A DNA stretch of 64,000 nucleotides from Candidatus Zixiibacteriota bacterium (GTDB lineage Bacteria > Zixibacteria > MSB-5A5 > GN15 > JAAZOE01): contig JBDREQ010000025.1 of assembly GCA_043819555.1 (NCBI GenBank), positions 64,001 to 128,000 of the forward strand, in the 5' to 3' direction. Both the position numbers and the translations under genes were made by a program. Below the pieces are notes generated by a model, which was not told the DNA's origin, did no database searches, and saw only the letters and a list, made by a program, of their open reading frames with translations. This document shows positions 4,705 to 60,767 of the stretch, in pieces (position 1 is the stretch's first letter; each line of letters opens with the position of its first letter).

Positions 4705-6642
4705 TTGAAGGTCCCTGGAATTTTATATCGAATTTCGTTTTTGGTTCTGATTAATTCTATATTTATTTTTATCGCCGTCTCATATGTCAGCATAGAAAAT
4801 AATCAAACCAAAATTGACAAACTGGTTTCGTACCGTTTTGATTTCATCAGCGATTATTTTCGCGCGGAGTTGAATGAGGCGCGGCTTGTTCATAATCCCG
4901 ATTCCGGCATCGCCTTAATTGGCAGAACATATCTGGCGGATATATTTGAGCATTCCAGCAAATTTATGCGGGGATTGGGCGGTCTGACGCTCCTTGAGAC
5001 GAATTCCAATGATGCCAAATATAATGTATTGGCCGATTGCTATCGAGATGAATTGAATGATCTCAAAATAAACCTCTCCCAAAAAGTAGATGATGAAATT
5101 GATAAAGATAAATTAACAAAATCAGGAATTCAAATTGGTCCGCGTTATAATTCCGATATCGGGCGGATGTGTACGATTTATATTCCCTGGGAAGAGAATA
5201 ATCCAAACCTGATATTGGCGATAACTTTTATGCCGGAAGAATTTCTCGGCTCAGACTTCGAATATAATTTGACTCTGGTATTGCTGTTTTTGGCCATTAC
5301 GCTGATTAGTCTACTGACGGTCAATTTGCTTTTTAGGGACTTTATAAAGCCGCTTCGAAATTTAATCCGGGGCATGGAAAAAACCGCAAAAGGCGAAGTT
5401 TTGCACCAAATGGAAAAAGTAAGCGATCGGGAGATCGGCCGCGTAACGACAGCTTTTAATACCATGTCATCGTCACTATGGAAACAGCGCAAACGACTTA
5501 AAAGAGCATTTATTGAACTTAAACAGGCGAATAAATCACTTGAAAAATCAGAAGCGTTTTTATCGAAACTAATAACTAATTCACCGTTTGCCATTATAGC
5601 TACGGATAGCGAAAAGAGAATTAAGCTTTTTAATCAGGCCGCTCAGGAAATGTTCTGCTTTTCCAATGAAGCCGTCATTGGGCGGGAATTACTGCAGTTT
5701 TTCCCCTTTGCGCCGGAACGGGTATTTCCGGGTGATAGGCAAGAGACAGGAGTAGTCGAGCGGGAGATGATCTGCCAGAAGGATAATGGTGAGAGTTTTC
5801 CGGTGTTAGTTAACCGTGTAACGATACGGGATGAAAATTCAGAATCGGGCGGGCATCTGTTTATTATTCGTGATATTTCCGAATCCAAAAATTTCCAGGA
5901 AATGTTAATTTCAATTGACCGAATGGCCACCAGCGGCGCAATGGCCGGCGAGATTGCCCATGAGATTAATAATTATCTGGCGATTATTCTTGGTAATGTC
6001 GAGTTGTTGCCGCTGTTATTATCCAAAGGGAAAATGGATAAGGTGGAACAGAAGCTTGGAGTATTGCGGACTACAGTTACCAAAATACAGACCTTCGCGG
6101 AAGGATTGATGGGATACGGAAATGAAGAAGCCGTTTTTACCGCTGAAGATTTAAATCAGTGCATTGAAAACCTGATTGCCTTTTTGAAACCGCAGAATCG
6201 TTATGATGATATATCCTTTAATGTGGATTTGTCTCGCAATTTACCGTTGGTTGAATTTGACGGCAGTCAGATACAGCAGTTGCTTGTAAATCTGCTGAAT
6301 AATGCCGCCGATGCCTTACGGGAAATCACTGACGAAAGAATAATTTCAATTTCTACCGACATCGACAGAGACAATAGCCAGGCCAAAATAAAAATTGCCG
6401 ATAATGCGGGAGGATTACCCGAAGATATAGATGGTTATATCTTTGAAAGACGATATACCGGCAAAAGGCGCGGCCGGGGATTTGGATTGGTTATTGTCAA
6501 ACGTATTATTAATAAGCATAATGGGCATATATCATATCAATCCAAAGTCGGATCGGGTACCAGTTTTGAGATTACAATACCATTGAGCAAGCCGGTAACG
6601 ATTGAAGCGGAAGAATCGACTCGCGAACAAGTTACCACTTGA
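4705..6642 (+). CDS. membrane sensor histidine kinase (periplasmic sensor, HAMP, PAS, HisKA, HATPase)
   Basis: 2 TM segments, HAMP (KPLRNL...EIGRVTTAFN.M), PAS, AHEINNYL H-box, NLLNNA, DNAGG, GRGFGL. Confidence 0.9.
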   Translation: MKVPGILYRISFLVLINSIFIFIAVSYVSIENNQTKIDKLVSYRFDFISDYFRAELNEARLVHNPDSGIALIGRTYLADIFEHSSKFMRGLGGLTLLETNSNDAKYNVLADCYRDELNDLKINLSQKVDDEIDKDKLTKSGIQIGPRYNSDIGRMCTIYIPWEENNPNLILAITFMPEEFLGSDFEYNLTLVLLFLAITLISLLTVNLLFRDFIKPLRNLIRGMEKTAKGEVLHQMEKVSDREIGRVTTAFNTMSSSLWKQRKRLKRAFIELKQANKSLEKSEAFLSKLITNSPFAIIATDSEKRIKLFNQAAQEMFCFSNEAVIGRELLQFFPFAPERVFPGDRQETGVVEREMICQKDNGESFPVLVNRVTIRDENSESGGHLFIIRDISESKNFQEMLISIDRMATSGAMAGEIAHEINNYLAIILGNVELLPLLLSKGKMDKVEQKLGVLRTTVTKIQTFAEGLMGYGNEEAVFTAEDLNQCIENLIAFLKPQNRYDDISFNVDLSRNLPLVEFDGSQIQQLLVNLLNNAADALREITDERIISISTDIDRDNSQAKIKIADNAGGLPEDIDGYIFERRYTGKRRGRGFGLVIVKRIINKHNGHISYQSKVGSGTSFEITIPLSKPVTIEAEESTREQVTT

Positions 6643-6674
6643 CAGTCTAATAGTAATCATCATACTTTGAAGCA

Positions 6675-8720
6675 ATGAAGCCGGTAAAATTATCAGCCTT
6701 TTTGGCGCCAATTCGACTTCGCTATTTGTTTTTGGTGACGATGGCATTGGCGGTGATTTTTTTCTCATTAGCATATCTTGGGATTAAAAAAGCCCGACAA
6801 TCTCTGACTAATATTATGGTGACGGAAGGGAAAGCGTTGATTGAATCGCTGACGTTATCGTCCACCAATGCGATTCAATCCGGACTCCTTCTGGAAAGCC
6901 TTTCCGAAGAAAAACTGGTTGAAATAGCGGCCGATGCGCAAACCCAACTTACCGGGATAACGGATTCCGAGAAATTCCGTCTGTTTTGCAAAGATCGGGA
7001 TTTGCTTACTCTTGAAATACTGGATTCATCGCTGGCTGTCATCGGGTCAAATCAGTGGGCTCGCGGGCATATTCCCGATTATCCGAATAAGGTCAAAGCC
7101 GAGATTCTGGAAATACTCCGGTTTAGCGGAGGATATCGCTCTGTCCTAATTTACGGGGAGGATTCGACGGCATCAGTTTCTCAATATTTTGTGTATGAAC
7201 TGGTTCCCACCGATGAAACATCTCCATCGGGAATAATGGTTTTGACGGTTCAGGCAAATTATATTGAACAGATTCTCAGGCAGATCGGAATTGGTTATCT
7301 GATTCAGGAGATTTCCGGTCAGGCCGGAATAGAATATATATTTTTGCAGAGCCACGATGGCATAATATTCTCATCACAAGGATTACCTCCGGTATTGAGC
7401 ATAGACGATGACCCGTTTCTTGCCTCATTGATGCAGGTCGATACTGTCGGCTGGCGCATCAGCCAGTTTGAAGGTTTTGATGTTCTGGAAATTGCCCATC
7501 GCTTTGAGTCCGTTTCTTATCCCCCCGGGATATACCGCATTGGGATGAACCTTGATGAGTTTCATTCCATATCGGCCGGATACGATCGGCAGATTATCAT
7601 CACGGCTATCGTACTGTTTTTGATAACTCTTCTTATTGTCGCCGTGGTATCGATTAATCAAAATTATTTTATTCTCGACAAAACATATCGGCAGATGCAG
7701 TCTCGCACGGAGACGATTTTTGACCAACTGACCAGCGCTGTTTTAGCTTATGACATGAACGGAAGAATTATCGCTGTCAATAACGCCTTTTTTGAAATGA
7801 CCGGAATTGGGTCCAAAAATATTGATGATTCTATCGATGAAATCGTGTCCCGATTACCCTTTGCTTTGCCCCAGGAGTTTTTCTCAGGACAAGCCAGTAT
7901 ATCACAGGAACTGGAGATTAAGACGCCACAAAACCAACTTCGCACAATCCTGCTGGGAGCGACGGAACTTCCAAGTAAGGCGGGCGGAGGCGTGGTAATT
8001 CTGATACATGATATTACCCGGCGCAAGAGGCTCGAAGAAGAAAATCGGCGCCGGGAGAGGCTGGTGGAAATGGGGGATATGGCGGCCGGAGTTGCTCATG
8101 AAATAAGGAATCCTCTAAATGCCATTGGAATCGCCGCGCAGAGACTAAAAATGGAATTTAATCCGCCGGAAGATAACGACGGGTATAATACTCTGACAAA
8201 AAACATTCTTAGTGAAACGGAACGATTGAATCAAATTTTGACCCGGTTTTTGGATTTGGCCCGTTCCAAGGCCATGGAGGATACGCCTGTTGATTTGAAT
8301 GAGGCAATTGAGAGGGGAATAAACAGCGTTGATGATGAAGCCAGGCAAAACGGAATTACGATTAGTTTCCCTGCGGAAAAATCTTTTATGGTGCGCTGCC
8401 AAATTGAAAAATTACAGCAGGTTTTCATAAACCTGATTCGAAACAGCATTCAGGCCATGAAATTTGGAGGAGAGGTAATAATCGACGTTCTCGAAACCGC
8501 CAACGAGGGGGTCGTAATCACTATCTCAGACACCGGGCCGGGATTTGAAGATGAAGTTTTATCCCGGATATTTCAGCCCTATTTTACGACAAAGACGGAT
8601 GGTTCCGGGCTTGGTCTGGCTCTGGCCTATAAGACAATATCCGAATGCGGCGGAACGATTGAGGCGTCAAATCATCCCAACGGCGGAGCAGTAATTAAAA
8701 TAAATCTTCCCATGGCATAA
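6675..8720 (+). CDS. membrane sensor histidine kinase (NtrB/ZraS-like, PAS)
   Basis: 2 TM segments, PAS, AHEIRNPL, NLIRNS, DTGPG, FQPYFTTK, GSGLGL. Confidence 0.92.
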   Translation: MKPVKLSAFLAPIRLRYLFLVTMALAVIFFSLAYLGIKKARQSLTNIMVTEGKALIESLTLSSTNAIQSGLLLESLSEEKLVEIAADAQTQLTGITDSEKFRLFCKDRDLLTLEILDSSLAVIGSNQWARGHIPDYPNKVKAEILEILRFSGGYRSVLIYGEDSTASVSQYFVYELVPTDETSPSGIMVLTVQANYIEQILRQIGIGYLIQEISGQAGIEYIFLQSHDGIIFSSQGLPPVLSIDDDPFLASLMQVDTVGWRISQFEGFDVLEIAHRFESVSYPPGIYRIGMNLDEFHSISAGYDRQIIITAIVLFLITLLIVAVVSINQNYFILDKTYRQMQSRTETIFDQLTSAVLAYDMNGRIIAVNNAFFEMTGIGSKNIDDSIDEIVSRLPFALPQEFFSGQASISQELEIKTPQNQLRTILLGATELPSKAGGGVVILIHDITRRKRLEEENRRRERLVEMGDMAAGVAHEIRNPLNAIGIAAQRLKMEFNPPEDNDGYNTLTKNILSETERLNQILTRFLDLARSKAMEDTPVDLNEAIERGINSVDDEARQNGITISFPAEKSFMVRCQIEKLQQVFINLIRNSIQAMKFGGEVIIDVLETANEGVVITISDTGPGFEDEVLSRIFQPYFTTKTDGSGLGLALAYKTISECGGTIEASNHPNGGAVIKINLPMA

Positions 8721-8774
8721 ATAAATGATCTAAAAAACTCGCATCTTTTAATTTAGCCAAATCCATAAAAATAT

Positions 8775-8820
8775 TTGACAATTGGAACCGATATATGTAC
8801 ATATCGTTATGGATATATAA
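8775..8820 (+). promoter_or_regulatory. sigma70-like promoter overlapped by an imperfect inverted repeat (candidate ArsR operator)
   Basis: TTGACA at 8775; CGATAT-ATGTAC-ATATCG and ATATAT..CATA-TCGT-TATG.ATATAT symmetry. Confidence 0.5.
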
Positions 8821-8848
8821 TGAGGTGGCCTCAATTAGGGTGATTGGT

Positions 8849-9163
8849 ATGATGAATAATAAGCAATACAGTAAGTACTTCAAGGCCTTTGGCGATCCGT
8901 CCCGGCTGAAAATTCTTGGCTTTCTTTCATCGAAGGAAATGACGGTAAACGATATCGTCAAAAAGATGGATTTGTCTCAGCCAACGATCAGCCGCCATCT
9001 GGCGATATTGAGAGAAGCCGAAATAGTCGTCGATCGCCGCGATGGCCAAAAAGTGTACTACAGTATCAATAGAAACTCCATAAGTAAATGCTGCTGCAGT
9101 TTTTGCGATTGCCTGGAAATTCCGGTCGCGGCTGGTGACAGCAAAAAAAGTAAGAATAAGTAA
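8849..9163 (+). CDS. ArsR/SmtB family transcriptional regulator with Cys-rich C-terminus
   Basis: FKAFGDPSRLKIL, SQPTISRHLAILREA, RRDGQKVYY; tail KCCCSFCDC; start moved to ATG 8849. Confidence 0.92.
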   Translation: MMNNKQYSKYFKAFGDPSRLKILGFLSSKEMTVNDIVKKMDLSQPTISRHLAILREAEIVVDRRDGQKVYYSINRNSISKCCCSFCDCLEIPVAAGDSKKSKNK

Positions 9164-9231
9164 AAAAATTTTGAAACAATAATAGACACATGCGCATATA
9201 AAGATATGTAGATACGCAATAAACGAAGGAG

Positions 9232-9447
9232 GTGATTAAGGTGGAAAAAGATTGCTGCCAGGTTAAAGTAACCGAAATTGATAATGGTTATAAAATCGAA
9301 GTGACCGGGGACGATGTCAAAAGCAAGTTTGCCGATTGCTGCGGACCCAAAATGGGCATGATGAAGATAGAAACATCTGAATGTTGCCCGGATGAGTCGA
9401 AAGGAAAAGCGGGGGACTGTTGCCCCAAAGAAAATAAGAACAAATAA
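9232..9447 (+). CDS. small Cys-rich protein with 4 CC pairs, putative metal(loid)-binding
   Basis: AAGGAGG SD next to the GTG starts (9232 or 9241); DCC, DCC, ECC, DCC; directly behind the ArsR gene. Confidence 0.75.
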   Translation: MIKVEKDCCQVKVTEIDNGYKIEVTGDDVKSKFADCCGPKMGMMKIETSECCPDESKGKAGDCCPKENKNK

Positions 9448-9622
9448 AAAAGGGTGTTTTCCGCTTTGTACTTTTTATATAAATCAACTCGAACCAAGGA
9501 GGATATGATGATCCGATTTTAACATTCCGCGAACCGCTCATTGTTGCGAAGGCGCCATGATGGCGTCCCGGGTATGACATAAAACTGCCTGATATATCTT
9601 TAATAATGATTCCTTAATTATT

Positions 9623-9652
9623 AACCCGGCGGGTTTATTAACCAGCCGGGTT
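9623..9652 (+). terminator. probable intrinsic terminator of the arsR unit
   Basis: AACCCGGC...GCCGGGTT stem. Confidence 0.55.
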
Positions 9653-9741
9653 TAAAAATTGCAGTTTTTGGCGAATAAGTATCTTGAGGAAATATCCTGA
9701 ATCGTCAATCCCGCTTGACATAATATAATTCGGAGCATAAT

Positions 9742-10182
9742 TTGGCGTTCATGAAAGAAATTGCCAGATATTCAGGGTGTTTTGTCTGCGGTGAGGGTAA
9801 TCCAATTGGGCTTCAGGCTCGGTTTTACTATGATGGCCGAAAGGCTATAAGCGAAATCACGGCCGATGAGAGATACGCCGGATATAAAAATATAATTCAC
9901 GGCGGCATCCTCGCAACCATGCTCGATGAAATCATGATTAAATCTCTTTTGGCCGAGGATTTATATGTTGTTACGGCCGAGATGACAGTCAGGTTCAAAA
10001 GGCCGGTTTATATCGGTGATAAATTGAGATTTGAGGGATATAAAACCGGAACCAGGGGGCCGGTTTATCTGACTGAGGGAAAAGCGATAAACCAGAACGA
10101 CGATATTATTGCCGAAGCCTCAGGTAAGTATATTGCTCCTAAATCCGAGTTGGCTGATCGGCTTCAGGATTCGGTCGAATAA
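9742..10182 (+). CDS. PaaI family (hotdog fold) thioesterase
   Basis: CFVCG..NPIGL, HGGILATMLDEIM, TAEMTVRFKRP; TTGACA promoter at 9715. Confidence 0.9.
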   Translation: MAFMKEIARYSGCFVCGEGNPIGLQARFYYDGRKAISEITADERYAGYKNIIHGGILATMLDEIMIKSLLAEDLYVVTAEMTVRFKRPVYIGDKLRFEGYKTGTRGPVYLTEGKAINQNDDIIAEASGKYIAPKSELADRLQDSVE

Positions 10183-10191
10183 CCGACACCA

Positions 10192-12789
10192 TTACTTCAT
10201 TATCACCAGTTTACCCAGTTGCTCCCCGTTATCCGAGAGTACATGCCAAAAATATATGCCGGTTACCACCGCCTGCGTATTGCGACTGATTACATCCCAC
10301 GACTCGTATTGCGATTGCGGTCCACCCTCGGGATTATAATGCTCAATTTCTTTAATCAGATCACCATCGATTGAATAGATTCTGATCTTGCAAACTTTGG
10401 GTAGGTTCATGAAATTAATTTTCCGCGTGCGTTCTGCTGATTTGGTCCTTTGCCGGTTCTCATAACCTTGGCTGGCATAACCGCCGTCGATACGATAGGG
10501 ATTGGGAAAGACAATAACGTCGAGAGCATGTTCTTCAGCATAATCTCCCTGGGGCATGGCGAAATCATTGACCGCATTTGTCATGGGTGAGGATTCGAGG
10601 GCACCAACTTCAAGCTGCAACGAACCATAATCGAAGGTTGTCACCGAAAAGTAAAACGGTATCGACGGTTGAATATTATCAACTGTGTATTCGTATTCGT
10701 AATACCGAATGTGTCCTTCGTCAGTGGTATCGTTCGGATCGTCCTTTGAAGCCCATGGATATATTTTGTGAATGCGATTGGGATTGGATAGATCGGATGT
10801 ATTCCAATCCTGGGGCGTAAAATAGATAAATTCGCCGGTCGCATGATCGACTAAAAACTTTTCCGGATTATTATAATCGAGAGGATTAAAATTGGGGCCG
10901 TATAATTTCTTTAGCGAATCAAGAGTAAAAGGGATTTCGCTTCGTTTCCATTGGAGCGTAATCGAATCATAATAATATCGTTTGAAATCTAAAACATCAT
11001 AAGAATCCAGCAGGACAAAATCCTGAAATCGCTCGGTGGTGGACATATAAACCCGGTAACCCTCAAAGTCTTTTTTGCCCGAGAAAGGATCGGGTGTAGT
11101 TTCAGATATTTGTCCGTTCCATCGGATTGTTACTTTGCCCATTTCCGGAATTGTCCTGATAATTGGCGGCGGAGGCGGGCCAGCGGCTTTGAAATCAGGA
11201 ACTCCGTCCCCGGTATAGAAATATTTATCGCAAAGTTTAAGCATATCATCCGGAGGCGGATCAGTTTCTGTAAAATACAGGGTCGAATCGTCGCCCTGAC
11301 AACTCCAAATATAGCGCCCGGAATCGCCGTTATTATCGGTGTCTACGCCGGGATTATCATAGACCCAGTATGCCCAGCGTGAATTATCTGAAAAATCTTT
11401 GAAATTAAGGGTGTTGTAATACAGGTCAGGATAGTAAGCATCAAAATTCTCGTGAAAATCCCTGGGATTGACGTGGAAATTAACGCCTGCGACAAAGGCT
11501 ATGGTAATGGGAAGCGTATCACCGGGTTCAACATTAAAGGGACCAAAGGAAAGCAGATAGCGAGTGTCAAAACCATTGGCGATATCGGTCGCCATACTTG
11601 GTCGCGGTGGCGGTAAATATCCCCGGCCGGTATGAGAAATGGCTGTATAAAGCTGATCGTAGTCGAATTCTTCATGAGATAAAATATAGTATTTGAGAAT
11701 ATCGCCTATAGGTGTGCCCAAATGAGTTCCAAATGAACGAAACGGGTCTTCATCGGAACCTGCCTTCCGGGGTCCAAAATCCAGGGTTGGATCGCTATTG
11801 GATACCCACCAATTAAAGCTGTAATTTAAATCCGGATTGGGAGTGCGCAAAACTCTTGTCCCGGTAACGCCTCGGGCCGACTGAATATACCAGTACTGCG
11901 GCTGCATGTCGGGAGGACCGGGGTCGCCATCATTATCGGCAATCCAGGCAATATTGACGGTGTCTTTTCGGGGACCGAATCGAGGCGGCATGTCGGCTGT
12001 TCTGAGGAATCCGCATATATCATCATAAGGCCCGTTTTGTCGATTGCCCATGTGGAAAACATCGCCGTCAACATATAGCCCCATATATACTTCTCTAAGC
12101 GGAAAGACATTGATATTAGCAATTTGAAAATCAATTAAAATAAAATCATCGGCGTAACTGTAACTCCAGGCATAAGAACGTTGCACTACAGATATATTGA
12201 GCGGCATATGAGGCCTATTATCAATTTGATTCTCACCTCCCGGAGCGACCATGGTATCAGTATAGTAAGCGATTATGTCCTGCTCAGATTTTGCATCAGG
12301 ATGAAACCCCGGGCGTCCCTTGAGAACTGTTCTGAATTCAAAATTACCGGCCGGATAATAATCTGGATTAAATTCCCGTCCGGTCCAGTTTTCCCAGCCT
12401 GTGGTAGCGCAGGAAACCAGAGTATCGCGTCCTACAATCGCTCCAATCCAGAGAGCGCCTCCAAAAAGGTGATTGACATCCGAGGCTTTTGGGTATTCAC
12501 AGCTGGGAACGACTTCGCCATCATAAACCGTTGACTGATCTCCGGAAAATGCGCCCAGAATACCACTATTGAGCAAAGCCATCCTGATATAACCAATATT
12601 ATGCATGGCCAATTGATAATTGGGTTCAAAATTTGCTGCCGATTTTGTCGAGTTATTTTTATTTAAATCTGGTAATTCAAACGGCGCTCGTGCCAAAGAA
12701 TCTACTGAGAAACAGTAAGTGATAAAGAAGATGCTTATTGTGGTTCTAATTATGCTAAATAATGAATTCATTAAAACTATCCTTTTCAA
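10192..12789 (-). CDS. large secreted protein with FN3-like region and T9SS-like C-terminal domain
   Basis: N-terminal hydrophobic segment; DFEGYRVY, YFSVTTFD; C-term VFPNPY...IRIYSIDGDLIK...WD..SRN.Q.V.TGIY...GKLVIMK. Confidence 0.8.
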   Translation of the reverse strand: MKRIVLMNSLFSIIRTTISIFFITYCFSVDSLARAPFELPDLNKNNSTKSAANFEPNYQLAMHNIGYIRMALLNSGILGAFSGDQSTVYDGEVVPSCEYPKASDVNHLFGGALWIGAIVGRDTLVSCATTGWENWTGREFNPDYYPAGNFEFRTVLKGRPGFHPDAKSEQDIIAYYTDTMVAPGGENQIDNRPHMPLNISVVQRSYAWSYSYADDFILIDFQIANINVFPLREVYMGLYVDGDVFHMGNRQNGPYDDICGFLRTADMPPRFGPRKDTVNIAWIADNDGDPGPPDMQPQYWYIQSARGVTGTRVLRTPNPDLNYSFNWWVSNSDPTLDFGPRKAGSDEDPFRSFGTHLGTPIGDILKYYILSHEEFDYDQLYTAISHTGRGYLPPPRPSMATDIANGFDTRYLLSFGPFNVEPGDTLPITIAFVAGVNFHVNPRDFHENFDAYYPDLYYNTLNFKDFSDNSRWAYWVYDNPGVDTDNNGDSGRYIWSCQGDDSTLYFTETDPPPDDMLKLCDKYFYTGDGVPDFKAAGPPPPPIIRTIPEMGKVTIRWNGQISETTPDPFSGKKDFEGYRVYMSTTERFQDFVLLDSYDVLDFKRYYYDSITLQWKRSEIPFTLDSLKKLYGPNFNPLDYNNPEKFLVDHATGEFIYFTPQDWNTSDLSNPNRIHKIYPWASKDDPNDTTDEGHIRYYEYEYTVDNIQPSIPFYFSVTTFDYGSLQLEVGALESSPMTNAVNDFAMPQGDYAEEHALDVIVFPNPYRIDGGYASQGYENRQRTKSAERTRKINFMNLPKVCKIRIYSIDGDLIKEIEHYNPEGGPQSQYESWDVISRNTQAVVTGIYFWHVLSDNGEQLGKLVIMK

Positions 12790-46218: not shown

Positions 46219-46246
46219 TTGACTTAACGGCGATAAAAAGTATTAT
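46219..46246 (+). promoter_or_regulatory. sigma70-like promoter of tRNA-His-hisS
   Basis: TTGACT-16-TATTAT. Confidence 0.65.
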
Positions 46247-46261
46247 ATATGCCTTGTAAAT

Positions 46262-46335
46262 GCTGGGGTAGCTCAGACGGTCAGAGCGCCTGACTGTGGA
46301 TCAGGAGGCCGGCGGTTCGATCCCGCCCCCCAGTA
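46262..46335 (+). tRNA. tRNA-His(GUG); no encoded G-1, G1:U72, A73, CCA not encoded
   Basis: Full cloverleaf: GCTGGGG/CCCCAGT, GCTC/GAGC, CCTGA-CTGTGGA-TCAGG, GGCGG-TTCGATC-CCGCC. Confidence 0.96.
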
Positions 46336-46358
46336 TTTTTTGTTTTTATCAGAACATA

Positions 46359-47810
46359 ATGAGTAAAAAAAAGAACAAGCCAAAAAAGATTAAACCGGAA
46401 GTCCTAAAGGGTTTCAAAGACTATCCGCCGTCCGAAGAGATTGCGCGGCAAAAGCTTGTAGCGGTTTTTCGGGAAGTGTTTGAGTCGTTTGGATTCTCTC
46501 CGCTTCAAACCCCGGCTCTTGAGCGAGTCGAAGTTCTGAAAGGTTCGGATTACGGACAGGATAACCTGGAGACGATTTTCAGCTTTGTTGGCCCGGAAAA
46601 AACCGATATGGCTCTGCGTTTTGAACTGACCGCTTCGCTGGCGCGGTATGTCGCCGGATATCCGGAATTACCGCTTCCGTTTCGCAGATATCAGATCGGC
46701 CCGGTCTGGCGCGTCGATAAACCCGGTCCGGGAAGGTTTCGAGAATTCACTCAGTTCGATATCGATTCGGTAGGAACGTCGAGCATGCTGGCCGATGCCG
46801 AGATTATGGCGGCGATCTGCAAATCATTCGAGAAACTTGGCCTGACAAATTACAAAGTCAAATACTCCAATCGAAAAATACTGAATGGCCTCGCGCAGTA
46901 TGCCAAAATCCAGCCGGAAACGGCCCCTGATGTTTTTCGAGTGATCGACAAGTTAGATAAGCAGGGAATGGACGCGGTAAAGCTCGAACTTGGTCCAGGG
47001 CGAACAGATATTTCGGGCGATAAGATTCCGGGATTGAATTTACCCGGTGAACAGATTGAGATTCTTGAAAAGTTTCTATTACTGCAATCTTCAGAAGAAA
47101 ATAGTATTGAAGCCGCCGGAAAATTATTGTCTGGGATTGCCGATGCCGAAGAGGGCATTGATGAGCTAAAACTTATTGCATCCTATCTCAAAAATCTCGG
47201 TGTTCCAGAAGAGAAGGCTCAAATTGATTTGACCATTGTGCGGGGACTCGGATATTATACCGGGCCGGTGTTTGAGACGGTGCTTGAAGATATTCCCGAG
47301 ATCGGATCGGTGTTTGCCGGAGGGCGTTATGACGGTTTAGTCGAGCGGTTTCTTGGAAAGAAAATTCCGGCAACGGGGGCGTCGGCGGGAATTGACCGAC
47401 TACTGGCGGCGCTGATGCTAAAAGGAGTTATCAAAACCGAGCCGACGATATCTCAGGTTCTCGTTACCGCGATGGACAAGGATCGGATGCCTGATTATCT
47501 CAATATACTAAATGAAATTAGAGACGCCGGTATCAAGGCCGAGATTTTTCTTGGCGAAACGCAGAATTTCACCAAGCAGATTAAATACGCTGACCGGGTT
47601 GGCATTCCAATCGCGGTCATTCTTGGTTCGGATGAATTCGAAAATAACCAGGTGACGGTTAAAAATCTCGTTGCGGGGAGAGTCCAGGCTGAAGAAGTCG
47701 CCGATCGCGAGGAGTGGCTCAAGGCTGAAGATATTCAGGCGACAATTCCCCGAGGGGAATTGATAGATTATCTGAAGAAGCTTCTTAAAGAAATTAATCA
47801 GACAAATTGA
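46359..47810 (+). CDS. hisS: histidine--tRNA ligase, alphaproteobacterial-like type
   Basis: KGFKD, LRFELTASLAR, WRVDKPGPGRFREF.QFD.D, IVRGLGYYTG, GGRYD, GIDR; true start ATG 46359. Confidence 0.96.
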   Translation: MSKKKNKPKKIKPEVLKGFKDYPPSEEIARQKLVAVFREVFESFGFSPLQTPALERVEVLKGSDYGQDNLETIFSFVGPEKTDMALRFELTASLARYVAGYPELPLPFRRYQIGPVWRVDKPGPGRFREFTQFDIDSVGTSSMLADAEIMAAICKSFEKLGLTNYKVKYSNRKILNGLAQYAKIQPETAPDVFRVIDKLDKQGMDAVKLELGPGRTDISGDKIPGLNLPGEQIEILEKFLLLQSSEENSIEAAGKLLSGIADAEEGIDELKLIASYLKNLGVPEEKAQIDLTIVRGLGYYTGPVFETVLEDIPEIGSVFAGGRYDGLVERFLGKKIPATGASAGIDRLLAALMLKGVIKTEPTISQVLVTAMDKDRMPDYLNILNEIRDAGIKAEIFLGETQNFTKQIKYADRVGIPIAVILGSDEFENNQVTVKNLVAGRVQAEEVADREEWLKAEDIQATIPRGELIDYLKKLLKEINQTN

Positions 47811-60591: not shown

Positions 60592-60682
60592 CTTTTCAAG
60601 ATTTTTCGTACATAATGCCAGATAACCGGGGCGTGTAATGAAACCTGTTCGCGTATTCCCGACTGGCCGATAAGAGAACCAA

Positions 60683-60754
60683 GCGGGTGTAATTCAGTGG
60701 TAGAATGTCAGCTTCCCAAGCTGGACGTCGTGGGTTCGAGCCCCATCACCCGCT
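60683..60754 (+). tRNA. tRNA-Gly(CCC), CCA not encoded
   Basis: GCGGGTG/CACCCGC, ATTC/GAAT, TCAGC-TTCCCAA-GCTGG, GTGGG-TTCGAGC-CCCAT, U73. Confidence 0.96.
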
Positions 60755-60767
60755 TTTTTTTAATGTT

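Follow-up and report, generated by a model that had tools for sequence, protein, structure and literature searches.

In the canonical bacterial system, represented by Escherichia coli and Thermus thermophilus, the tRNAHis gene encodes a G at position -1 (G-1) that pairs with C73 and is kept by RNase P, and the histidyl-tRNA synthetase (HisRS, encoded by hisS) has about 420 amino acids. Ardell and Andersson in 2006 and Wang in 2007 reportedly described a G-1-less tRNAHis/HisRS pair in the alphaproteobacterial RRCH clade, with Caulobacter crescentus and Sinorhizobium meliloti as members. The alphaproteobacterial tRNAHis of this type has no G-1, A73, a G1:U72 first pair and a 9-nucleotide (nt) D-loop with the extra base U20a; addition of G-1 does not help the C. 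crescentus HisRS, and the losses seen with it were 91- to 1000-fold for anticodon mutants, 91-fold for U72C and 3-fold for A73C (PMC3064791). An insertion in the anticodon-binding domain is the likely reader of the anticodon, and the Caulobacter HisRS/tRNA pair has already been shown to be usable as an orthogonal pair (PMC3064791). Glycine in place of the motif-2 glutamine (Gln) is a derived enzyme character of the alphaproteobacterial clade (PMC3937112), and in the Thermus complex a Gly72'-Gly73' dipeptide forms the G-1 pocket, where C. crescentus has two Asp (PMC4357726). In Trypanosoma brucei and Acanthamoeba castellanii, both protists, tRNAHis without G-1 occurs together with a G-1-independent enzyme, and Thg1 is missing (PMC4338351, PMC3561963). 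Here we describe a tRNAHis gene and the hisS gene that follows it in a stretch of 64,000 nt (the window) from a Candidatus Zixiibacteriota bacterium (assembly GCA_043819555.1, contig JBDREQ010000025.1, positions 64,001 to 128,000).

A preliminary description of the window had proposed that it holds a G-1-less tRNAHis linked to a matching HisRS in a non-alphaproteobacterial genome. This core proposal holds in view of four marks of the enzyme, the covariation of enzyme and tRNA, and the enzyme tree. We conclude that the window very probably contains a complete, self-contained histidine identity system that is predicted to be independent of G-1. The base at -1 of the tRNAHis gene is T (46261), so that G is not encoded there; the first pair is formed by G1 (46262) and T72 (46334), and the discriminator is A (46335), i.e. 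A73 instead of C73. Each of these assignments had been made before and was confirmed base for base. All seven pairs of the acceptor stem form. The bases 3' of A73 are TTT, showing that CCA is not encoded, and 29 of the 42 parsed tRNA genes of the genome likewise lack an encoded CCA. The D-loop (AGACGGTCA) has 9 nt with C as the extra base (20a), which is T in most relatives; canonical Zixibacteria tRNAHis also has a 9-nt D-loop, so this feature does not discriminate here.

The hisS product scores 374.6 bits against TIGR00442 (cut-off 286.75) and contains the Pfam domains tRNA-synt_His and HGTP_anticodon. Among the PDB matches of the window enzyme, canonical enzymes scored ~120 bits and the two best long bacterial forms 248 and 240 bits. 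In an alignment of 27 enzymes, four marks were common to the window HisRS and to two enzymes from metagenome-assembled genomes (MAGs) labelled Alphaproteobacteria (L089, L090), and were missing from E. coli, canonical Zixibacteria and long enzymes that keep the motif-2 Gln. First, Gly123 stands at the canonical Gln position, within KPGPGRF; both alphaproteobacterial MAG enzymes read KPGPGR(F/Y), and the E. coli loop is FRHERPQKGRYRQF. Second, the G-1 pocket is replaced: by our reading of the columns, the Glu-Lys of GPEK align with the Gly-Gly dipeptide, where E. coli has NG, canonical Zixibacteria and Patescibacteria have GG, the alphaproteobacterial MAG enzymes have DTDE and DNDE, and all Gln-less rows shown are acidic or bulky. 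Third, a GR(T/K)D..SG insert occurs in the insertion domain of the Gln-less rows shown, including both alphaproteobacterial MAGs (LLT(S/T)GRKD-ESG), and is not found in Gln-keeping long or canonical enzymes. Fourth, the Gln-less rows shown, again including the alphaproteobacterial MAGs, carry an insertion in the anticodon-binding domain that is not found in E. coli, canonical Zixibacteria or Gln-keeping long forms. Thus, at the positions that define the canonical G-1:C73 system, the window has T at -1, A73, Gly123 and GPEK. The motif-2 loop and the insertion-domain insert named in the preliminary description are both present, and its 'extended C-terminus' needs rewording: a short tail exists, and most of the extension is the internal insertion of ~20 residues at 448-467. 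The length of the insertion domain varies within the family, from 483 amino acids for the whole window enzyme to 510-590 in some relatives (L031, L034, L037, L039, L040, L044), whose 30-110 extra residues sit at about residues 250-260 of hisS (~47105-47140 in the window).

Features of the tRNAHis-hisS locus, in positions of the window
Feature	Position	Strand	Basis and remarks
Sigma-70-like promoter (putative), TTGACT-16-TATTAT	46219..46246	+	Consensus scan and conservation; 15 nt upstream of tRNA position 1; function inferred
tRNAHis (GTG), G-1-less type, positions 1-73	46262..46335	+	Sequence and ARAGORN; T at -1, G1:U72, A73, 9-nt D-loop, no encoded CCA
T-rich spacer, 23 nt, A73 to hisS start codon	46336..46358	+	Sequence
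hisS, histidyl-tRNA synthetase, long Gln-less type, ATG to stop codon, 483 amino acids	46359..47810	+	TIGR00442, Pfam, Gln-less clade; G-1 independence predicted
Residues 78-81 (GPEK), site of canonical Gly-Gly G-1 pocket	46590..46601	+	Alignment
Motif-2 loop WRVDKPGPGRFREF, residues 117-130	46707..46748	+	Gly123 at canonical Gln position
LELGPGRTDISGD insertion, residues 209-221, insertion domain	46983..47021	+	Alignment
~20-residue insertion (ADREEWLKAEDIQATIPRGE), residues 448-467, anticodon-binding domain	47700..47759	+	Alignment

Enzyme type and tRNA type covaried. We matched enzyme loops to the tRNAHis of the same locus or the same genome and removed duplicates, which left 56 distinct pairs. 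Among the 47 pairs with a Gln-less enzyme, A73 was present in all and G1:U72 in 44; base -1 was T in 35, C in 8, G in 3 and A in 1, and Gln was replaced by G in 28, D in 17, and A and E in 1 each. All nine pairs with a Gln-keeping enzyme had G at -1, G1:C72 and C73. The covariance model used for tRNAHis (R1) was built from G-1-less tRNAs and gives canonical tRNAHis no better rank than it gives other tRNAs; of the 15 loci that it fetched from five control genomes with Gln-keeping enzymes, one was a tRNAHis, and canonical controls were drawn from Zixibacteria instead. By record label, the Gln-less pairs come from Zixibacteria, Bacteroidetes/Bacteroidota, Ignavibacteriota, Planctomycetota, Acidobacteriota (Thermoanaerobaculia, Bryobacterales), Krumholzibacteriota, Marinimicrobia, Alphaproteobacteria and unnamed bacteria. 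The G-1-less pair thus occurs in at least eight phylum-level groups and is not special to the window genome. MAG labels can be wrong: records named 'uncultured Ignavibacteriales bacterium' (L043) cover the same contig range (~6222-10655) as a contig of the window's own Zixibacteria family (G009:C72, L006), so that several contigs labelled Ignavibacteriales belong to window-family genomes and some labels are unreliable.

The enzyme tree was computed with IQ-TREE under LG+C20+F+G4 by posterior mean site frequency (PMSF), with 84 rows and 483 columns. Duplicates, pieces shorter than 390 amino acids, the long-insert variants L034, L037, L040, L042 and L044, several rows labelled Patescibacteria and 'Gammaproteobacteria', and two rows missed by the pattern (L173, L175) were omitted, and the naming of groups followed inspection of the tree. 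The longest branch of the tree, supported at 100/100, split the canonical enzymes (that of E. coli and five from Zixibacteria) from a long family of 78 rows. Within the long family the Gln-keeping forms were basal, and all 70 Gln-less rows lay on one side of a branch supported at 99/97 and found in 99% of bootstrap trees. The alphaproteobacterial MAG enzymes were nested among the latter, in a clade of seven rows (100/100) whose other members come from Marinimicrobia, an unnamed bacterium and a single MAG labelled Zixibacteria. On this tree the window enzyme is therefore placed, apart from the canonical enzymes, in a single Gln-less HisRS clade that also holds the alphaproteobacterial type, a clade that spans Zixibacteria, Ignavibacteriota/Bacteroidota, Planctomycetota, Acidobacteriota, Krumholzibacteriota, Marinimicrobia and others. 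The window HisRS itself fell in a 26-row clade composed of its own order only (100/100), in which the sampled rows of family f1 (the window's family) formed one group, those of family f3 another, and six of the nine f4 rows one of their own; the single f2 row was basal, and three f4 rows lay elsewhere. This is a pattern of vertical descent, by which the window lineage is taken to have inherited the linked pair from the ancestor of its order and not to have acquired it recently. The three other f4 genomes joined genome G068, of family f7, in a further group (100/99). The approximately unbiased (AU) test rejected a single clade of all 31 Zixibacteria rows (log-likelihood 122.6 lower, p-AU 0.0002).

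As proposed earlier, the host is not an alphaproteobacterium; the genome belongs to Zixibacteria. The draft assembly comprises 79 contigs totalling 3.35 Mb, with 97.1% completeness, 0.37% contamination and a G+C content of 43.6%. The nearest named relatives of the window HisRS are labelled Candidatus Zixiibacteriota, candidate division Zixibacteria or FCB group, and among the 120 best homologue matches all lineage-named ones are Zixibacteria, FCB group or candidate division GN15. A chimeric or alphaproteobacterial contig was considered and rejected, since the labels of the relatives and the phylum surveys place the cassette in Zixibacteria. The genome holds one tRNAHis among 45 tRNA and transfer-messenger RNA genes (ARAGORN) and one hisS above the TIGR00442 cut-off, with three weaker matches far below it. 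No Thg1 (PF04446) match was found in this 97%-complete genome, in a search that detected it in the positive control, Methanosarcina. The genome also encodes an RNase P RNA of type A (273.7 bits) and a nucleotidyltransferase of PF01743.

The two genes are recurrently linked. In family f1 the tRNA lies at most 170 nt upstream of hisS in all 12 other genomes, which shows that the arrangement is no chance feature of one contig. Among 42 distinct loci holding both genes, the tRNA is upstream on the same strand in 37, and in 17 of these the first ATG follows 21-35 nt past the discriminator, including loci of Thermoanaerobaculia, Krumholzibacteriota, a Marinimicrobia-like genome and G068. Two of the remaining five have the tRNA 0.5-1.1 kb upstream, two are divergent and one has it downstream. 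Linkage can also be lost, since in family f3, of the window's order, tRNAHis and hisS are tens of kilobases apart. The consensus scan for the promoter-like site is by itself no better than chance (4 sites against 3.5 expected), but the element (CTTGACT..GCGATA..TA(A/T)TATAT) is kept in 13 of 13 f1 genomes, with the DNA further upstream unalignable. Spacing and promoter conservation make co-transcription of tRNAHis and hisS likely.

Several points weigh against a G-1-independent system expressed from one promoter. The acceptor end G1:U72/A73 is also present in four tRNAArg, tRNALys(CUU) and one tRNAMet of the window genome. Being common to other tRNAs, it cannot alone mark tRNAHis, and histidine identity would have to rest largely on the anticodon, with the modified anticodon-binding domain as its reader, by analogy with Caulobacter. 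The T at -1 could pair with A73. G stands at -1 in three of the 47 tRNA genes that go with a Gln-less enzyme, and three lack G1:U72, namely a Thermoanaerobaculia MAG with C1:G72 (L061), a Planctomycetota MAG with G1:C72 (L082) and a Planctomycetaceae MAG with U1.U72 (L110), all with A73. The definition of the Gln-less group followed inspection of the loops, and as the enzyme tree shows a single loss of Gln, the 47 pairs do not count as separate tests and attest to consistency across the clade. The tree has its root on a long branch, and treekit warned of long-branch joins; the alphaproteobacterial reference in the tree consists of the two MAG enzymes L089 and L090. The evidence for co-transcription consists of spacing and promoter conservation, and a search of sequencing runs gave no RNA run with the window stretch and two DNA runs only, at a word share of 0.14.

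In the reading that we favour, the conserved promoter at 46219-46246 would transcribe tRNAHis and then, by read-through, hisS. The T-rich tract that follows A73 is conserved in family f1 and might stop part of the transcripts. If it ended most of them, with a hisS promoter overlapping the tRNA gene, the two genes would be expressed separately, and the f3 genomes indicate that hisS can be expressed without the tRNA next to it. We consider separate expression unlikely in the window, where no promoter-like site at 46247-46358 and no terminator-like hairpin between the tRNA and hisS were found in the scan; the 23-nt spacer is too short for a promoter of its own, and spacers of 21-35 nt are seen again in distant lineages. 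Since the hisS start codon would follow tRNAHis by ~25 nt on a tRNA-hisS precursor, the tRNA could conceivably serve as an operator of hisS, with HisRS binding, or excision of the tRNA by RNase P and a 3' nuclease, setting hisS translation, and with the resulting feedback module spreading and displacing the G-1 system. This is a speculative and rather improbable idea; if true, it would explain the spread across many phyla and the replacement within genus g82 described below, and would make the alphaproteobacterial system one capture of such a module.

As for processing, a G-1-independent system implies that RNase P would cut the precursor at the normal +1, so that the mature tRNA would begin at G1 with nothing extra, after which the 3' trailer would be removed and the CCA-adding enzyme would add CCA. 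HisRS no longer has the Gln and the Gly-Gly pocket by which G-1 and its partner strand are held, has gained the anticodon-domain insertion, and, by homology to the C. crescentus enzyme, would recognise the GUG anticodon together with U72 and A73. Alternatively, RNase P could cut one base early, leaving a U-1 that pairs with A73, extends the acceptor stem to 8 bp and takes the place of G-1, as the T at -1 in the window and in most Gln-less-paired tRNA genes would allow. We regard this as very unlikely. T at -1 is common to ordinary tRNA genes of the window genome (22 of the 42 parsed, and 19 of the 25 with A73), so that the T preceding tRNAHis is an ordinary RNase P context and not specific to it; moreover, C, G or A stands at -1 in 12 of the 47 Gln-less pairs, and the -1 pocket of the enzyme is filled. 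It is hardly credible, too, that a Thg1-like or other enzyme adds G-1 after transcription to serve a HisRS that still needs it: eukaryotic genes also have A73 without an encoded G-1 (PMC3245924), and the genome is 97%, not 100%, complete, but the PF04446 search was negative with its control working, the HisRS is without both the Gly-Gly pocket and the motif-2 Gln, and the characterised relative of the same clade gains nothing from G-1 (PMC3064791). An assembly or binning artefact or foreign insert, with the real canonical pair unassembled, is conceivable for a 79-contig draft, in which tRNA genes are often missed, and can be set aside as extremely improbable given the same linked pair and conserved promoter in all 12 other family genomes, an enzyme tree that follows families f1, f3 and f4, ordinary chromosomal flanks and the lack of a second hisS.

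The genes flanking the cassette encode a 4Fe-4S membrane protein and a methyltransferase, and no mobile-element genes were found there. A second tRNA gene of the window, for tRNAGly, lies at 60682-60755. On the same contig, upstream of the window, is a tRNASec (TCA) gene (G000:C25:38574-38668), which suggests that the organism probably uses selenocysteine. Across the 42 parsed tRNA genes of the genome, base -1 is Watson-Crick complementary to the discriminator in 32 (T:A 19, C:G 9, A:T 4), a genome-wide potential eighth acceptor pair in precursors.

We surveyed 251 genomes, a sample of the phylum, calling the long HisRS type at E <= 1e-40. It was found in 161 of them, including 131 of the 139 in the window's order (f1 12/12, f2 4/4, f3 88/95, f4 27/28), where the eight genomes without a match are 78-95% complete. 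Further families had it in f6 (3/3, weak matches), f7 (1/14), f8 (5/5), f9 (9/9), f10 (3/3), f15 (3/3) and f18 (5/5), and none of the 69 genomes of eight other families did (f5 0/21, f11 0/8, f12 0/4, f13 0/5, f14 0/13, f16 0/15, f17 0/2, f19 0/1). A BLAST survey with the tRNA gave matches in 162 of the 251 genomes in broadly the same pattern, with none in f6 and f10 and weak partial ones in f14, f16 and f17; because such a search cannot separate absence from divergence, families were classed by enzyme type. The tRNAHis genes from f8, f9, f15 and f18 are of the G-1-less type, and four genomes of f5 and f7 (G051, G053, G054, G057) have G at -1, G1:C72 and C73 with Gln-loop enzymes of ~425 amino acids (453-479 bits). 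Thus, the phylum holds both systems, sorted by lineage, and the G-1-less pair is fixed in the window's whole order. A genome of f10 (G074; L180, L185) has a long HisRS that keeps Gln (DRPQKGRYREF; 463 amino acids from the inferred start in a 475-amino-acid open frame) together with a canonical tRNAHis (G at -1, C73), and may be a picture of the state before the loss of G-1 dependence.

In genus g82 the pair appears to have replaced the canonical one. Genome G068, which is 100% complete, has a single hisS, which is Gln-less (371 bits; its loop reads FDKPDPGRF), and one strong tRNAHis match with T at -1, G1:U72 and A73 that ends 25 nt upstream of the hisS start. In each of its congeners G061 and G064, a lone canonical hisS (466 and 470 bits) goes with a tRNAHis that has G at -1 and C73, and G068 alone among the 14 sampled f7 genomes matched the long type. 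Its cassette is on a contig of 514 kb, where the flanking DNA matches the congeners at nucleotide identities of 66-78%, with part of the blocks collinear, making mis-binning unlikely. The tRNAHis of G068 is 59-61% identical to those of its congeners and 88% identical to that of G137, another Zixibacteria genome with the cassette, of family f9. Just upstream of the cassette (L190, G068:C4:313650-328650) are two short sequences (~2509-2750 and ~4997-5180) with dozens of copies in the G068 genome, and the block collinear with the congeners starts ~8.3 kb from the cassette. Judged from these sequences, g82 gives the clearest sign of the tRNA and enzyme moving and replacing the canonical pair as a unit. 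Together with the AU test on the Zixibacteria enzymes, it supports the earlier suggestion of a transferable unit, and indicates that, elsewhere than in the window lineage, tRNA and enzyme have been transferred together and have supplanted the canonical pair.

We found no report of a G-1-less tRNAHis in bacteria outside the alphaproteobacteria in the full-text literature searched, whose coverage leaves out most subscription journals. Reviews of 2012 and 2023 describe the bacterial G-1-less system for alphaproteobacteria only (PMC3245924, PMC9976931), with G-1 loss seen as peculiar to a single alphaproteobacterial clade (PMC9976931), and G-1 loss has been used as a one-off shared character for placing SAR11 (PMC3937112). 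The window is thus a non-alphaproteobacterial case of a system so far described for alphaproteobacteria. Taken together, the data point to a wider pattern in which one clade extends over many phyla as a linked and mobile cassette, with the alphaproteobacterial-labelled enzymes apparently nested inside it. The tRNA and enzyme often travel linked and can replace the canonical pair within a genus, which weakens G-1 loss as a vertical marker. The origin of the alphaproteobacterial system becomes testable by phylogeny, and the suggestion that the window offers a clue to it stands in so far as two alphaproteobacterial-labelled MAG enzymes nest in a wider bacterial clade. The clade may also supply many natural candidates for orthogonal HisRS/tRNA pairs.

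Among the known systems, the G-1-independent HisRS of protists is eukaryotic and of independent origin, and its likeness to the window enzyme is one of description only. The canonical bacterial system shares with the window the enzyme family (TIGR00442, PF13393), the anticodon and the overall domain order, but differs in having G-1, G1:C72 and C73, an ERPQKGR loop, a Gly-Gly pocket (Asn-Gly in E. coli) and neither insertion. The nearest relatives outside the Gln-less clade are the long Gln-keeping HisRS of Patescibacteria and of G074, for which the nearest solved chains are PDB 3net and 6nhi. Like the window enzyme, they have a long insertion domain and a loop that ends in REF, whereas the loop Gln is kept, the Patescibacteria rows keep Gly-Gly, and the GR.D..SG and anticodon-domain inserts are missing; the two members whose tRNA was examined (UBA1406 and G074) have canonical G-1:C73 tRNAs. 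The closest counterpart is the alphaproteobacterial RRCH system, from which the window differs in its Zixibacteria host and in having the two genes adjacent and probably co-transcribed. In the two alphaproteobacterial MAGs, no tRNAHis lies within 1.5 kb on either side of hisS, and the tRNAHis genes are on other contigs; these have T at -1, G1:U72 and A73, with CCA encoded in both and not in the window, and position 20a is U in the alphaproteobacterial tRNA and C in the window. The subclade of alphaproteobacterial and Marinimicrobia enzymes carries a further insert after the YYTG motif, which is missing from the window HisRS. The shared features are nevertheless extensive: in both systems the tRNA lacks G at -1 and has G1:U72 and A73, along with a D-loop of 9 nt that canonical Zixibacteria tRNAHis has too, and both enzymes have Gly for Gln, a replaced pocket and inserts in the insertion and anticodon-binding domains, the window enzyme falling in the same clade as those of the two alphaproteobacterial-labelled MAGs.

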